Source: Hahellaceae bacterium
Lineage (GTDB): Bacteria > Pseudomonadota > Gammaproteobacteria > Pseudomonadales > Oleiphilaceae
DNA: 64,000 nucleotides
Assembly: GCA_016716085.1 (NCBI GenBank)
Contig: JADJWY010000001.1
Coordinates: 423,437 to 487,436 of the forward strand
Direction: 5' to 3'
Shown here: one piece after another, positions 27,106-34,814 of the stretch
Numbering within the stretch: the first letter of the stretch is position 1
How the letters are laid out: each line of letters opens with the position of its first letter
Translations under genes and position numbers: made by a program
The notes under the pieces: generated by a model
Databases searched by the model: none
Told to the model about the DNA's origin: nothing
Seen by the model: the letters and a program-made list of their open reading frames with translations, nothing else

Positions 27106-27840
27106 GTGAACTTAAGAACGCTCAAACGCTTCATTAAACCGCTGATCAAAACCCCTCTTCACCCCCAGTGGTACACATCGTTTGATAAACACCTAAAGCA
27201 ACTATTGCGAAATACGCCGAGCGACAGCATCGTTTTAGACATTGGATGCTTCGATATGTGGCCCCGCCAGCATCTTCCAGCGGAGGCAACCTATATTGGG
27301 TTGGACTATTTCGAAACCGCCACGCAATGGTATCACTCCAAGCCCCACGTATTTGGAGACGCGCTTTCTCTCCCTTTCGCATCGGGCGCTTTCGATACAG
27401 TACTGTTACTGGATGTCCTTGAGCACCTGGAGAAAGACACCACCTGCCTCAATGAAATACAGCGAGTGCTCAAACCGGGAGGTGTGCTGATTCTGCAAGT
27501 CCCCTTTCTCTACCCCATACACGATGCTCCCCGAGATTTCAGACGGCTGACTGAATATGGTTTGCAGCTGCTGGCTGAAAACTGCGGTCTCAAAATAGAA
27601 AACATTCACTATGTTGGCACCCCGCTACAGACTGCGACATTGCTTGGCAATCTGGCGCTCTCCCACACCATGATGGAGTGGGTGAATCGGCGGCACCCCC
27701 TTTTACTTTTAGTCCCGGTTTTGCCGGTCACTATAGTCTTGGGCAATCTACTGAGCTGGCTTCTTGATCGGTTTACCTTGGGTACTGGCTTTATGCCGTT
27801 CCGTTATACTTGCACACTGATCAAACCCGAAAATGGATAA
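27106..27840 (+). CDS. Class I SAM-dependent methyltransferase with C-terminal membrane helices
   Basis: Methyltransf_11-like motifs VLDIGC, FDTVLLLDVLEHL and LKPGGVLIL. Hydrophobic C-terminal tail. GTG start. 8-nt overlap with the next gene. Confidence 0.8.
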   Translation: MNLRTLKRFIKPLIKTPLHPQWYTSFDKHLKQLLRNTPSDSIVLDIGCFDMWPRQHLPAEATYIGLDYFETATQWYHSKPHVFGDALSLPFASGAFDTVLLLDVLEHLEKDTTCLNEIQRVLKPGGVLILQVPFLYPIHDAPRDFRRLTEYGLQLLAENCGLKIENIHYVGTPLQTATLLGNLALSHTMMEWVNRRHPLLLLVPVLPVTIVLGNLLSWLLDRFTLGTGFMPFRYTCTLIKPENG

Positions 27841-29041
27841 ACATCACCTTACATCAAACACTATCAAGGTTACGTTTTTAACGACGTCCTACCCCCTATC
27901 TGAAGGCTCCACTTCCGGGATTTTCGTTAAACGGCTGGTTGATGCCATACCGCAGCCCTATCAGGTGAGCGTTATCACGCCAGCGCCATCCGAAACATGG
28001 AACCAGGCGTACGCGTCTGAGGTGACCCCTTTTCGCTATGCCCCTCAACGATGGCAATTGCTGGCCCATTTACCCGGCGGCATTCCCGTTGCGCTGAAAA
28101 AAAAACGCAACCTCCTCTTGCTCCCTCCATTTTTAATTGCTTTAGGCCTGGCCTGTTTTCGTGCCACCCGAACCACCCGAATTTTTCATGCCAACTGGTC
28201 AGTCACCGGTGCGATATCGGGCATTATTGGAAAGCTTTCAGGCGTTCCCGTGATCACCACCCTGCGGGGTGAGGACATTTCACGCGCAGAAAAAGGCGGT
28301 GTCTTTTTATGGCTGCTTAAAACCTGCATTCGAACCAACCAGCAGATTGTGTGCGTGAGTCAGGAAATGGGTGATGAATTGCGTGGTCGCTTTTCCGCTT
28401 GCGCCAGTAAGATAAGCTTCATCCCCAATGGGATCAGTGATCAATACCTGGAAATCCCCGTGCGAACCTCCACGGCACGCCCGAAGGATCTAAAACTGCT
28501 TGCTGTCGGGAGCCTGATCCCTCGCAAAGATTTTGTTACGGTCATTCGAGCACTCCACCTATTGTCGGAAGAAATCCGTCCACATTTAAACATTGTTGGT
28601 GACGGCCCTGAACGTGAAAATCTCGAAGCCCTGATCCACGAACTGGCGCTGACGAAATGGGTCACACTACAGGGGCGTGTCCGCCCTGCAGACATGGCAA
28701 AGTATTATCGAGGCGCCGACCTCTTTATTTTAAGTAGCCTCAGCGAAGGCCGACCCAATGTGCTGATCGAAGCCATGGCATCTGCCTTACCGGTGATTGC
28801 AACGGACATCTCTGGTGTGCGTGAACTCATTCAGATGAACAAAAATGGCCTTCTGTTTCTACCAGAAGATGCCGAGCGTCTTGCCCAATGCCTTGAGCAG
28901 CTAGTGACCTCACCCAACCTTCGACACGACCTTGGACATGCCGCCCGTAAAACCATCATCAACCTCGCGTCGCAGTGGTCCGAAACCGGCAAACAGTACG
29001 CTAAACTCTATGACAGCCTACTTGAGGAGAATCGTCCCTAA
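27833..29041 (+). CDS. GT4-family (GT-B) glycosyltransferase
   Basis: C-terminal EGRPNVLIEAMASALPVIATDISGVRE (E-x7-E region) and about 400 aa. TAATG overlap with the next gene. Confidence 0.85.
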   Translation: MDKHHLTSNTIKVTFLTTSYPLSEGSTSGIFVKRLVDAIPQPYQVSVITPAPSETWNQAYASEVTPFRYAPQRWQLLAHLPGGIPVALKKKRNLLLLPPFLIALGLACFRATRTTRIFHANWSVTGAISGIIGKLSGVPVITTLRGEDISRAEKGGVFLWLLKTCIRTNQQIVCVSQEMGDELRGRFSACASKISFIPNGISDQYLEIPVRTSTARPKDLKLLAVGSLIPRKDFVTVIRALHLLSEEIRPHLNIVGDGPERENLEALIHELALTKWVTLQGRVRPADMAKYYRGADLFILSSLSEGRPNVLIEAMASALPVIATDISGVRELIQMNKNGLLFLPEDAERLAQCLEQLVTSPNLRHDLGHAARKTIINLASQWSETGKQYAKLYDSLLEENRP

Positions 29042-30918
29042 TGTGTGGACTGGCATTTTTACATGATCCCACGCGCCCTTCAGCCTCAGGGCAACAGGCC
29101 ATCAATACGGCCGTTCAGAAACTGAAGCACCGGGGCCCGGACGAACAAAATACCACACATGCAGGTCATGCTTTTTTGGGCCATGCCCGCCTTTCAATCG
29201 TGGATGTGGCGACCAGCCACCAACCCCTGGTAACCCCTGACCAGCGCTATCATCTGGTCTTTAACGGAGAAATCTACAACTTTCAGTCGCTCCGCTCGCG
29301 CCTTGAACCCAAATGGGCATTTCGTACCCAAGGCGACACCGAAGTCATTCTGGCAGGACTTATTTTGGAAGGGTCCGATTTTCTGGGTTTGATGGAAGGC
29401 ATGTGGGCCATCGCTTTTTGGGACTCCCTCTCCGAAACTCTCATCCTGAGTCGCGATCCCTTGGGGAAAAAGCCCCTTTTCTATCAGATAGCCGGACACT
29501 CTACTTTGTGGGCTGCCTCTGAACTACCCGCGTTGAAGGCCCTGGCAGACGGCCGATGGCAGGAAGACTTGAATAGCACTGCCGACTATTTCCGTTACGG
29601 CTTACTCATGCCCGGCAAAACCATCTACAAAGAGGTGCAGGAACTCTTACCCGGCACGACGATGGAATGGAGGCCAGGAGAAGCACCCGCATTCAGGCGA
29701 CATTGGTTACTTCCCTTGAGCAGGACATCACTGTCCAGGCATGAAACGCTGGAGCAGCTGCAGCAGACTTTGGAAAACGCCGTCCGTAAGCGCCTGATTG
29801 CGGACGTTGAGATCGGTGCCTTTCTATCCGGCGGGGTGGATTCGTCCCTCATCGTCGCACTGATGAAACCCCACTTAAAGACGCGTATTAAAACCTTTAC
29901 GATCCGCTTCAAGGAGGCCTCCTATGATGAGAGCCCTTTTGCGCAGCAGATGGCCGATTTTCTCGGAACGGAGCACTTCGCCGAGACCTTTAACCAGGTC
30001 ACAGCGGAGGGCATCGAAAGCCTCATCACCAACCATTTGGGCCAACCCTTTGCAGATGCCTCCATCCTCCCGACCACACTGGTCTCCGGTGTGGCGGCGT
30101 CGCATGTGAAAGTAGCTTTGTCAGGGGATGGCGGTGATGAACTGTTCTGCGGCTATCAGCGCTACCAGGCCAGGGTTATTCTAAATTGGTATTCACGGCT
30201 ACCCAAGGCACTGCGTTTACCCTTTGAAAAGCTCATCCAGTATTTACCGGAGCCGACAGTCCACCACAGCCGCAGTTACCTGAAAAAGGCCAAGCTTTTC
30301 GTAGATGCTGCGCAGCAATATGCAACCGACATGACCTACTTCGCGCCGCGCATGTTCACATCAGAACGATTTGATGCCTGCTTCCCGGATCTGAGAAACC
30401 TGGGACATCCGGCGTCGGAACTGCCACAGGAAACTGGGCTGAACGATCTTAAGCGCATGATGGCCAAAGATATGCTGATCTACTTGCCGCAGGATATTCT
30501 GCAAAAAGTTGATCGGGCGTCGATGGCGCGATCACTGGAGGTGCGCTCGCCGTTTCTGGATACCGAACTGATCAAACTGGCATTTTCGCTTCCTTCTGGT
30601 TGGCACCGAAACCTTTTCGGTGGTAAACGCATGCTGCGATCCGCCTTTCTCAAACAGCTCCCAGAGAACATCTGGAATCGAAACAAACAAGGTTTCGGTA
30701 TCCCATTGCATCATTGGTTTAAAGGCGAACTGGGTGATGTGCTTATTGAACAAAACGCACAAGGCACGCTTCCATTGGACCAGAAAGCCCTGTACGCCCT
30801 AATTAAAGAGCACAGATCGGGCCAGAGGGACTATGGTTTACAGCTCTGGACACTTTATTGCTATTCTTTGTGGAAAAAATCACACACCCACCACGCGTCT
30901 GGCTTCAACCACAGCTAG
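29041..30918 (+). CDS. Asparagine synthase (glutamine-hydrolysing) family amidotransferase (WbpS-like context)
   Basis: N-terminal MCG (Ntn Cys2) and the PP-loop SGGVDSS. About 625 aa, embedded in a glycan-tailoring operon. Confidence 0.88.
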   Translation: MCGLAFLHDPTRPSASGQQAINTAVQKLKHRGPDEQNTTHAGHAFLGHARLSIVDVATSHQPLVTPDQRYHLVFNGEIYNFQSLRSRLEPKWAFRTQGDTEVILAGLILEGSDFLGLMEGMWAIAFWDSLSETLILSRDPLGKKPLFYQIAGHSTLWAASELPALKALADGRWQEDLNSTADYFRYGLLMPGKTIYKEVQELLPGTTMEWRPGEAPAFRRHWLLPLSRTSLSRHETLEQLQQTLENAVRKRLIADVEIGAFLSGGVDSSLIVALMKPHLKTRIKTFTIRFKEASYDESPFAQQMADFLGTEHFAETFNQVTAEGIESLITNHLGQPFADASILPTTLVSGVAASHVKVALSGDGGDELFCGYQRYQARVILNWYSRLPKALRLPFEKLIQYLPEPTVHHSRSYLKKAKLFVDAAQQYATDMTYFAPRMFTSERFDACFPDLRNLGHPASELPQETGLNDLKRMMAKDMLIYLPQDILQKVDRASMARSLEVRSPFLDTELIKLAFSLPSGWHRNLFGGKRMLRSAFLKQLPENIWNRNKQGFGIPLHHWFKGELGDVLIEQNAQGTLPLDQKALYALIKEHRSGQRDYGLQLWTLYCYSLWKKSHTHHASGFNHS

Positions 30919-34055: not shown

Positions 34056-34067
34056 CATCGCTCGACC

Positions 34068-34814
34068 ATGAAAAAGGACGTTAACCTCCACTCACTCTAC
34101 GAAAATGAGACCACGCGACAAAAATACCGTCGACTGGTCGCAGGCCAATATGCTTCCGGGAGACGCTGGATGCTCCAGGAATGCGCTTTGACCCTACTCG
34201 AAGGCATCGGTGGCGCCCTCGGCTTGGTTCTGAGAAAACTGGTCTACCCACGCATTTTTCGCGGCATTCACAGGTCTGTCATCATTGGGCGAAACGTCCT
34301 GCTTCGGTGCCCGGTCCAGATCAGGCTAAACGCGAAAGTCATTATTGATGATACCGTGCAGCTAATCGCTAATTCAGATGCCAGAGAAAGTATTACCTTG
34401 GGCGAAAATGCATTTATCAGAAGCTTTGCCTGCCTCAATGCCGGCCCTCCTTCCGGGTTTATAAAGATCGGAAAAAACTCAGGCATCGGGCAAATGAGCG
34501 TGCTCTATGGTAACGGTGGCTTAACCATTGGGGACAATGTCATGATCGCAGGTCAATGCTTTATCGTTGCCTCCAGTCATCGCTACGACCAATCCGACGT
34601 ACCGATTATGTTTCAAGGCATTACTGCAAAAGGGATTGTGATTGAAGACGATGCCTGGATCGGCGCAGGCGCAAAAATTCTGGATGGCGTCACCATTGGC
34701 AAGGGTGCCATCGTCGCTGCGAACGCCGTGGTGACGAAGGATGTGGCAGCTGGGGCACGTGTGGGCGGCGTTCCCGCACGGCTGCTTTCGAGCCCGAAAG
34801 TGCCCGATCTTTAA
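34068..34814 (+). CDS. Hexapeptide-repeat sugar O-/N-acyltransferase
   Basis: Left-handed beta-helix repeats ([14 protein letters not shown]...[31 protein letters not shown]). Confidence 0.8.

Follow-up and report, generated by a model that had tools for sequence, protein, structure and literature searches.

Seven enzyme genes close to pilA in an uncultured gammaproteobacterium as the probable elaboration module of a two-module, TfpW-type pilin O-glycosylation island

Type IV pili are of major importance for adhesion and motility and as receptors of phages. To our knowledge, few routes of pilin glycosylation have been worked out: the transfer of O-antigen-like units by enzymes of the TfpO/PglL type and the TfpW/D-arabinofuranose route. 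Here, we describe a seven-gene operon from a Hahellaceae bacterium (positions 27106-34814 of the window, by which we mean the whole 64-kb stretch analyzed, positions 423,437 to 487,436 of contig JADJWY010000001.1, assembly GCA_016716085.1) that lies close to the gene of the major pilin, pilA. We consider it likely that type IV pilin is O-glycosylated here by a TfpW-type island made up of two modules, and that this operon is the one that elaborates the sugar.

The TfpW transferase contains 11 transmembrane helices, a DDx motif in the first periplasmic loop and C-terminal tetratricopeptide repeats (TPR), and its gene is located directly after pilA (bioRxiv 10.1101/2020.04.19.049825). The polyprenyl-phosphate donor used by TfpW is made in the cytoplasm and modified while lipid-linked (DprE1/DprE2 epimerisation), a small dedicated flippase is present, and the acceptors are Ser/Thr residues of the pilin (bioRxiv 10.1101/2020.04.19.049825). 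O-glycosylation of pilin by a pilA-linked TPR-containing membrane transferase is, in other words, already known from TfpW. The window encodes a membrane protein, hereafter GTC, which is similar to the transferase of the TfpW/D-arabinofuranose system of Pseudomonas aeruginosa group IV (Pa5196, PA7) in its anatomy and its position relative to pilA, the comparison being with the published description of TfpW. The donor pathway, however, is unrelated: it starts with a UbiA-type phosphoribosyltransferase in the TfpW system and with a GT2-family glycosyltransferase similar to AglJ, ArnC and GtrB here. The flippase is GtrA-like in the TfpW system and MprF-like here (the protein is called Flp below), and instead of DprE1/E2 there are a GT4-family glycosyltransferase, an AsnB-type amidotransferase, three methyltransferases, an acetyltransferase and a radical S-adenosylmethionine (SAM) enzyme.

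The combination of a GT2 enzyme carrying C-terminal transmembrane helices with a flippase and a GT-C-type transferase (a putative one in our locus) is shared with the three-component periplasmic systems GtrB/GtrA/GtrX, ArnC/ArnD/ArnEF/ArnT, CsbB/GtcA/YfhO, PgfS/PgfM and PpgS/Rv3779, and with ArnD the tailoring of a lipid-linked sugar has a precedent. These systems transfer one unmodified or minimally modified sugar and do without GT4, AsnB, methyltransferase or radical SAM enzymes; their flippases are of the GtrA or ArnEF kind and their acceptors are lipopolysaccharide or teichoic acid, whereas the locus described here has an MprF-family protein and pilin as the proposed acceptor. In the Agl pathway of Haloferax volcanii, the GT2 enzyme AglJ acts on polyprenol monophosphate, cytoplasmic glycosyltransferases add hexuronic acids, the SAM-dependent methyltransferase AglP modifies a uronic acid of the lipid-linked glycan, and a flippase candidate and a multi-transmembrane transferase follow. 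Unlike our locus, the Agl pathway is archaeal and N-linked, relies on the oligosaccharyltransferase AglB and has neither an amidotransferase nor a radical SAM enzyme.

Two further likenesses concern individual enzymes. Adjacent GT4 and AsnB genes within a surface-glycan locus are also known from WbpS-type AsnB proteins and from the GT4-amidotransferase pair of the XrtA system (TIGR03088/TIGR03108), and the chemistry presumed to be shared is the amidation of a uronic acid carboxylate. The XrtA system nevertheless differs from our locus, in which the corresponding scores are well below the cut-offs, exosortase and exopolysaccharide export genes are absent and the context is pilA instead of exopolysaccharide synthesis. 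The radical SAM enzyme, in turn, shares the CX3CX2C core and a C-terminal auxiliary-cluster domain with BtrN, BlsE and DesII, its Cys spacing being similar to that of the single twitch cluster of BtrN. The NeoN/HygY epimerases are further carbohydrate-modifying radical SAM enzymes with twitch/SPASM domains. The identity to BtrN, BlsE and DesII is 13-21%, and our enzyme differs from them by an N-terminal extension of 60 aa, by the lack of the aminoglycoside or nucleoside antibiotic context of this class and by a substrate that is possibly lipid-linked.

The seven genes, all on the plus strand, encode a methyltransferase (MT1, 27106-27840, 244 aa), GT4 (27833-29041, 402 aa), the AsnB-type amidotransferase (29041-30918, 625 aa), a second methyltransferase (MT2, 30971-31723 from its ATG, with a possible TTG start at 30959, ~250 aa), the radical SAM enzyme (31725-32852, 375 aa), a third methyltransferase (MT3, 32877-34055, 392 aa) and a hexapeptide acyltransferase (AcT, 34068-34814, 248 aa). 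The coordinates and junctions given in the original prediction, which had been made by reading the DNA without database searches, all matched: an 8-nt overlap, a TAATG overlap and gaps of 52 nt (counted from the ATG at 30971), 1, 24 and 12 nt. Judging from this spacing, the seven genes are presumably co-transcribed. They converge head-on, as had been noticed, with a minus-strand trio: the stop codons of AcT (34814) and Flp (34811) overlap by 4 nt (34811-34814), so that no space is left for a terminator between the two transcription units. The trio consists of the genes of Flp, a stand-alone MprF-flippase-like membrane protein (34811-35770, 319 aa), of GT2, the predicted polyprenyl-phosphate glycosyltransferase (35794-36675, 293 aa, with two C-terminal transmembrane helices), and of GTC, a multi-transmembrane protein with C-terminal TPR and a putative TfpW/TMTC-like pilin O-glycosyltransferase (36659-38644, 661 aa; the start was taken as the ATG at 38644, and the reading frame is open to 38812, which corresponds to 661-717 aa). 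The adjoining pilA gene (38724-39224, minus strand) codes for a type IVa major pilin with Pfam Pilin and N_methyl domains and has a terminator-like hairpin at 38699-38719; pilB, pilC, pilD and coaE are divergent from it, on the plus strand. In a promoter and terminator scan, nothing was above the shuffled expectation except the clear pilA terminator.

Pfam assignments of the seven gene products all passed the curated cut-offs. None of the seven falls into a specific characterized equivalog of NCBIfam, the exception being a match of AsnB to a broad model of glutamine-hydrolysing asparagine synthases. In agreement with the original prediction, Pfam and NCBIfam detect no phosphoglycosyltransferase, Wzx/Wzy flippase or polymerase, ABC transporter or nucleotide-sugar genes among the seven, and no genes of these types were seen in the sampled parts of the window.

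A neighborhood survey of the radical SAM gene covered 22 orthologue loci from species-representative genomes and the places found by a look-up of the exact protein, 29 loci in total; thirteen window proteins were mapped onto them within ±10 kb per locus. The genes of MT1, GT4, AsnB, MT2, radical SAM enzyme, AcT, Flp, GT2 and GTC recur as a set in rearranged orders and orientations, and MT3 is an optional member of the cassette (12 of the 29 loci). As the same set is found in 29 loci from different orders, its co-occurrence is far beyond chance. Between the cassette genes, most loci have no extra open reading frame of 100 aa or more. The loci belong to Gammaproteobacteria, Desulfobulbus and other Deltaproteobacteria, and the taxa represented include Ketobacteraceae (including the cassette-bearing isolate Ketobacter sp. 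MCCC 1A13808), Moraxellaceae, Cellvibrionaceae, Chromatiales, Sedimenticola, Thiodiazotropha, Methylobacter and Desulfobulbus. The linkage of the cassette to type IV pilin genes was observed directly: in 16 of the 29 loci a pilin gene is at most 500 nt away from a cassette gene, and in 3 more it is within about 5 kb. In addition, the sequence of the Methylobacter marinus A45 locus starts within the pilin gene, pilBC lie adjacent on one truncated contig, and an N-methyl pilin gene is adjacent both in the Desulfobulbus locus and in a distant subfamily with 45% identity. The closest relatives (72-77% identity) have pilCB followed by pilA-GTC-GT2-MT2-radical SAM and then, facing it on the opposite strand, by Flp-AcT-AsnB-GT4-MT1 and nadC, and thus their MT2 and radical SAM genes are co-oriented with pilA and the transferase gene. 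The slot between pilA and nadC is the one in which P. aeruginosa keeps its pilin accessory genes.

Embedding of homologous operons in O-antigen or capsule loci had been named in advance as the outcome that would speak against the idea of an operon for glycan elaboration, whose substrate might be the pilin-linked sugar on which the neighboring trio acts. None of the 29 loci has such a setting, and the pilA-linked orthologous cassettes support the idea. We also considered an O-antigen or capsule cluster as an identity for the operon itself and rejected it: phosphoglycosyltransferase, Wzx/Wzy, ABC and nucleotide-sugar genes are found neither in the cassette of the window nor in the annotated cassettes of the orthologous loci. 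Orthologues of the cassette were not found in plasmid and phage collections, the best plasmid matches having at most 30% identity.

Several loci show variations of their own. In M. marinus A45 (KB912877.1, 4355-9235), a decayed copy of the cassette is present in which GT4 is split into two open reading frames (ORFs), AsnB is broken by a minus-strand ORF of 498 aa with no Pfam match, and AcT is cut to 169 aa; GT4, AsnB and AcT are intact in a metagenome contig (L004) whose radical SAM protein is identical to that of A45. Two tandem GTC paralogues follow pilA in locus L009 (15861-19792), and two tandem pilin genes precede one GTC gene in locus L019 (14931-15863). Both the Desulfobulbus locus L012 (14425-17294) and the distant-subfamily locus L053 (14585-16249) contain an additional PMT_2-type GT-C, a hint that transfer in the periplasm may involve a second step in some variants. 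In the Desulfobulbus locus, the cassette and the gene of the pilin-linked TPR protein are also separated by a gene for a VKOR-DsbA fusion.

The way in which the genes vary between loci suggests a grouping different from the division into seven genes and a trio that had been drawn from the window. In correlations of pairwise distance matrices over 14 complete non-redundant loci, MT1, GT4, AsnB, MT2, radical SAM enzyme, AcT and Flp mutually co-vary (r 0.35-0.73; 0.35-0.68 for Flp against the tailoring genes). The distances of Flp do not co-vary with those of GT2 and GTC, which correlate with each other (r 0.57) and, weakly, with pilA (about 0.3), and correlations across the two blocks are low (0.02-0.38). 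The second block also exists elsewhere. Nitrosococcus oceani has pilA, GTC (40% identity) and GT2 (63%) without the radical SAM cassette and followed by other glycosyltransferases, a Wzx-type flippase and a DegT aminotransferase. In Pseudomonas nitroreducens the same three genes (GT2 63% identical), again without the radical SAM cassette, are followed by another GT2, a methyltransferase, Wzx, a GT4 and a UDP-sugar 6-dehydrogenase, and Methylomonas has only pilA and GTC, beside a different set of AsnB, GT4 and CapK genes. The GTC family is also the larger one, with more than 2000 scored matches against 462 for the radical SAM enzyme. This co-variation, the occurrence of the second block elsewhere, the existence of a core of the first block without it in Arenicella (see below) and the family sizes together identify two natural units: the seven genes with Flp, and a pilA-GTC-GT2 chassis. 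The genes of the proposed trio are therefore as described, while their grouping is not: Flp belongs with the seven, and GT2 and GTC form the pilA-linked chassis. A parallel to this logic is found in O-antigen loci, where conserved initiating and ligating enzymes are combined with a variable cluster that has its own flippase. In the N. oceani locus, a pair of a YoeB/ParE-type toxin and a Phd/YefM antitoxin is located between GTC and GT2 (3914-4434), and a Cas12f/TnpB-like fragment is found upstream of pilA.

GT2 of the chassis matches Pfam Glycos_transf_2 (105 bits), has conserved DDGSTD and DADGQH motifs and contains two C-terminal hydrophobic segments. Its closest solved structures are dolichol-P-mannose synthase (DPMS), ArnC and GtrB, and its best NCBIfam matches are AglJ (110 bits against a cut-off of 325 bits), PgfS and PpgS. 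DPMS, ArnC, GtrB, AglJ, PgfS and PpgS all load a sugar onto polyprenyl phosphate, and the sequence features of GT2 are those expected of a polyprenyl-phosphate glycosyltransferase of the DPM1/GtrB/ArnC type. The GTC gene is located directly after pilA in most loci and adjoins it here and in at least 16 other loci. The protein has an invariant pair, D55-D56, in its first loop, and its structural model (predicted local distance difference test score, pLDDT, 82.5) consists of a helical membrane domain followed by TPRs. In Pfam, GTC and 15 of its orthologues have TPR matches only and no GT-C family match; searches of PDB sequences with the single sequence or a profile returned nothing for the membrane domain, the profile search finding only TPR. 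Comparison by hhalign with the TMEM260_N protein of locus L053 likewise matched the TPR region alone. The best fold match of the membrane domain is Pmt4, a weak one (TMq 0.34, Foldseek E ~3e-3) in a listing dominated by TPR proteins. The YX6PFX7P motif of TfpW is present in part, with Y304-x6-P311 invariant, and no protein named TfpW is found among the named homologues of the GTC family. Flp, finally, has at least five hydrophobic segments and matches Pfam LPG_synthase_TM (57.8 against 33.4 bits, residues 43-292), which makes it a member of the MprF flippase-domain family and a putative flippase.

All three methyltransferases match Pfam Methyltransf_11. MT1 is a class I SAM-dependent enzyme (57 bits) with orthologues of 31-48% identity in the cassette loci, and the membrane tail ascribed to it earlier was found as a single C-terminal hydrophobic segment (residues 199-217). 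MT3 has one such segment as well (residues 291-309), in addition to the methyltransferase domain at residues 172-258 and an N-terminal Trm112-like zinc-ribbon module (NCBIfam Trm112_arch match, residues 62-94). MT2, also of class I (89 bits), is conserved at 48-69% identity, and its gene immediately precedes that of the radical SAM enzyme in most loci. GT4 matches Pfam Glycos_transf_1 (130 bits) and Glyco_transf_4; its best NCBIfam match is the PEP-CTERM/XrtA GT4 'stp2' model TIGR03088, at 134.6 bits and hence below the 409-bit cut-off, and in every orthologous locus that carries GT4 its gene adjoins that of AsnB. AsnB has the Pfam Asn_synthase (293 bits) and GATase_7 domains and passes the cut-off of the glutamine-hydrolysing asparagine synthase model TIGR01536 (409 against 267 bits), and its nearest subfamily is the XrtA/PEP-CTERM amidotransferase TIGR03108, of which it remains short (454.5 bits against a cut-off of 816.9). 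Pfam finds no exosortase genes in the locus. Cys2 (in an MCG N-terminus) is present in every AsnB orthologue with an aligned N-terminus and the SGGxDS PP-loop in 25 out of 25, and because both are kept, we take AsnB for a functional amidotransferase rather than a lasso-type cyclase. AcT is a left-handed beta-helix acyltransferase (Pfam Hexapep) similar to WcaF and maltose/galactoside O-acetyltransferases: WcaF is its best NCBIfam subfamily, its PDB neighbors are sugar O-acetyltransferases, and its gene stands beside the radical SAM or the flippase-like gene in all loci.

The radical SAM enzyme passes the Pfam cut-offs for both Radical_SAM (76.8 against 29.5 bits) and SPASM (42.2 against 21.5 bits), with a helical N-terminal extension in front and a SPASM/twitch-like domain at the C-terminus; orthologues with 43-80% identity occur in Gammaproteobacteria, Desulfobulbus and other Deltaproteobacteria and in a metagenome-assembled genome of Scalindua. 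Across 18 homologues, C76, C80 and C83 of the CX3CX2C core are invariant, and the invariant C-terminal cysteines are five only (276, 294, 295, 344 and 347). The motif of seven or eight Cys that holds two auxiliary [4Fe-4S] clusters in SPASM domains is not present, and the five cysteines suggest a single twitch-like cluster with one Cys to spare; the twitch region of BtrN aligns to residues 276-352. In Foldseek searches, the model (pLDDT 81) matched many radical SAM structures with a probability of 1.00, the top neighbors being BlsE in the first place, SuiB, DesII, SkfB, viperin, BtrN and EpeE. Carbohydrate enzymes are thus found among both sequence and fold neighbors: the uronic acid decarboxylase BlsE, DesII and BtrN.

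If the operon does act in pilin glycosylation, the enzymes could work in the following way, although we hold the details of the mechanism with less confidence than the role itself. On the cytoplasmic face of the membrane, GT2 would use a common nucleotide sugar as the donor to glycosylate undecaprenyl phosphate, and GT4 would add a further sugar, probably a uronic acid, which is plausible given the UDP-sugar dehydrogenase gene of the P. nitroreducens locus and the carboxylate amidotransferase of the cassette. AsnB may then amidate the carboxylate at the expense of glutamine and ATP, the methyltransferases may O-methylate and the hexapeptide acyltransferase O-acetylate the sugar, and the twitch-like radical SAM enzyme could abstract a hydrogen atom from it, leading to epimerisation, oxidation or decarboxylation. 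The finished glycan, still lipid-linked if tailoring takes place at that stage, would be moved by Flp to the periplasmic face and transferred by GTC to Ser/Thr residues of pilin. The membrane segments of MT1, MT3 and GT2 were counted in favor of this pathway. The original prediction had described the operon as tailoring-only and as acting on a glycan made elsewhere. The modifying enzymes are indeed there, but the first term understates GT4, which probably adds a second sugar; similarly, elaboration holds, and "elsewhere" does not, since the glycan is probably initiated by the adjacent DPMS/ArnC/GtrB-like GT2. It is possible, albeit doubtful, that the radical SAM enzyme acts directly on the undecaprenyl-phosphate-linked sugar, e.g., by C-epimerising, oxidising or decarboxylating a uronic acid, that together with its partner methyltransferase it makes a rare sugar without a nucleotide-sugar pathway, and that the MprF-like protein is the cognate flippase.

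Several observations weigh against a role in pilin glycosylation. The membrane domain of GTC has no Pfam GT-C match, and the E-value of its fold match to Pmt4 is above 1e-3. GT-C enzymes of the PMT/TMTC type normally transfer single sugars from polyprenyl-phosphate donors, and the en-bloc transfer of a GT4-extended glycan is an assumption on our part. The fold neighbors of the radical SAM enzyme include SuiB, SkfB and EpeE, which modify peptides. In Arenicella, a GT4-AsnB-MT2-radical SAM-AcT-Flp core is found with no pilin, GT2 or GTC gene within 10 kb, and the same is true of locus L008. The weak co-variation between the two blocks is, moreover, equally expected from two independent functions. 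The Arenicella core and the weak co-variation would fit a scenario in which the seven genes and Flp make and flip a membrane glycolipid or a periplasmic glycoconjugate of their own and lie beside pilA only because both occupy a hotspot of variable surface structures. Glycosyltransferases acting on diacylglycerol and phosphatidylinositol are known within GT4, a diacylglycerol lipid is the substrate of the MprF flippase domain, and a weak NCBIfam match to MGlcDAG synthase was obtained. Linkage to a major pilin gene in 19 of the 29 loci, which come from distant taxa and differ in gene order, is hard to reconcile with such independence, as are the location of the MT2 and radical SAM genes within the pilA-GTC-GT2 transcription direction in the closest relatives and the lack of an alternative periplasmic transferase in most cassettes, and we regard this scenario as quite improbable.

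Two other explanations retain a link to the pilin or at least allow one. The pilin may be glycosylated while the seven enzymes act on soluble nucleotide sugars, in which case GT2 would load an already modified sugar and GT4 would play another role. Many sugar O-acetyl-, methyl- and amidotransferases do act at the level of nucleoside diphosphate sugars, BlsE, DesII and BtrN use soluble substrates, and strongly hydrophobic segments are absent from AsnB, MT2, the radical SAM enzyme and AcT. MT1 and MT3, however, have membrane segments, and nucleotidyltransferase, dehydratase and aminotransferase genes are absent from every cassette. GT2 is 63% identical beside wholly different elaboration modules, and its conservation across them points to a first sugar that is constant and unmodified; Flp co-varies with the tailoring enzymes, as if it recognized a finished lipid-linked glycan. 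On balance, we find tailoring at the nucleotide-sugar level unlikely. Far less probable still is a pathway resembling that of ribosomally synthesized and post-translationally modified peptides (RiPPs), with the SPASM enzyme, AsnB as a lasso-cyclase-like enzyme and the methyltransferases modifying a peptide, possibly prepilin. SPASM enzymes are best known as peptide maturases, the peptide-modifying fold neighbors listed above fit this notion, and AsnB does match the lasso cyclase model, below its cut-off (152 against 525 bits). The same protein keeps Cys2 and the PP-loop and reaches 409 bits with the glutamine-hydrolysing asparagine synthase model, the five invariant C-terminal cysteines fit a twitch-like domain as in BtrN, and two glycosyltransferases, an acetyltransferase of the sugar type and a flippase-like protein always accompany the set. 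We also examined a RiPP biosynthetic cluster as a formal assignment of the operon, and it was rejected: gaps of at most 52 nt leave no space for a precursor gene, and no protease, exporter or other conserved extra gene is found in the cassettes.

We thus favor the interpretation of the seven genes as the elaboration module of a pilin O-glycosylation island, and the layout on which it is based is not an assembly artifact, as Logan contigs obtained independently in several studies of wastewater and activated sludge cover the cassette and its junctions at ~100% identity. Sequences nearly identical to positions 27106-36900 are present in wastewater, activated-sludge and sediment metagenomes of about ten studies; the host is an uncultured gammaproteobacterium, recurrent and of low abundance in wastewater. 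The cassette region has a GC content of 47-53%, compared to 55-59% in the flanks, which are core chromosome: genes of the rpsB region, including uppS and bamA, followed by glnD and dapCDE. PADLOC gave no specific match to a defense system and only generic ones, of the radical SAM core to pVip and of the methyltransferase fold to mad2. Immediately before the cassette, the minus strand encodes a 184-aa protein (26383-26937) in which the cold-shock domain is limited to residues 121-181. Two plus-strand ORFs, of 106 aa (26039-26359) and 779 aa (50103-52442), match no Pfam family, and a DUF1329 and DUF1302 outer-membrane gene pair is located beside a thiolase gene on the minus strand (53615-56864).

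We found no description of this cassette and donor pathway, i.e., of an AglJ/ArnC-like GT2, an MprF-like flippase and a block of GT4, AsnB, three methyltransferases, AcT and a radical SAM enzyme, in the searchable literature, and nothing relevant was found in the literature searched on pilin glycosylation in combination with radical SAM, AsnB or GT-C/TPR proteins. A conserved radical SAM enzyme in pilin or protein glycosylation is unprecedented in the searchable literature, and the radical SAM step, the MprF-type flippase and the chassis/module architecture go beyond the routine. If the radical SAM enzyme and Flp act as proposed above, bacterial protein glycosylation would gain its first radical SAM step, and the substrates of MprF-type flippases would be extended by a new class.

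Glycosylation of pilin by TfpO and TfpW protects against pilus-binding phages (bioRxiv 10.1101/150227; PMC11841053). By analogy, the role of the modification proposed here is probably the variation of the pilus surface, including protection from such phages. The loci described here would then represent a third and widespread route of pilin glycosylation, in which a constant pilA-GT2-GTC chassis is combined with exchangeable elaboration modules, each with a flippase of its own, and culturable carriers, namely Ketobacter and Methylobacter relatives, exist. If this is true, the modules would provide new chemistry for the tailoring of lipid-linked glycans and a new family of phage-evasion pilus modifications.

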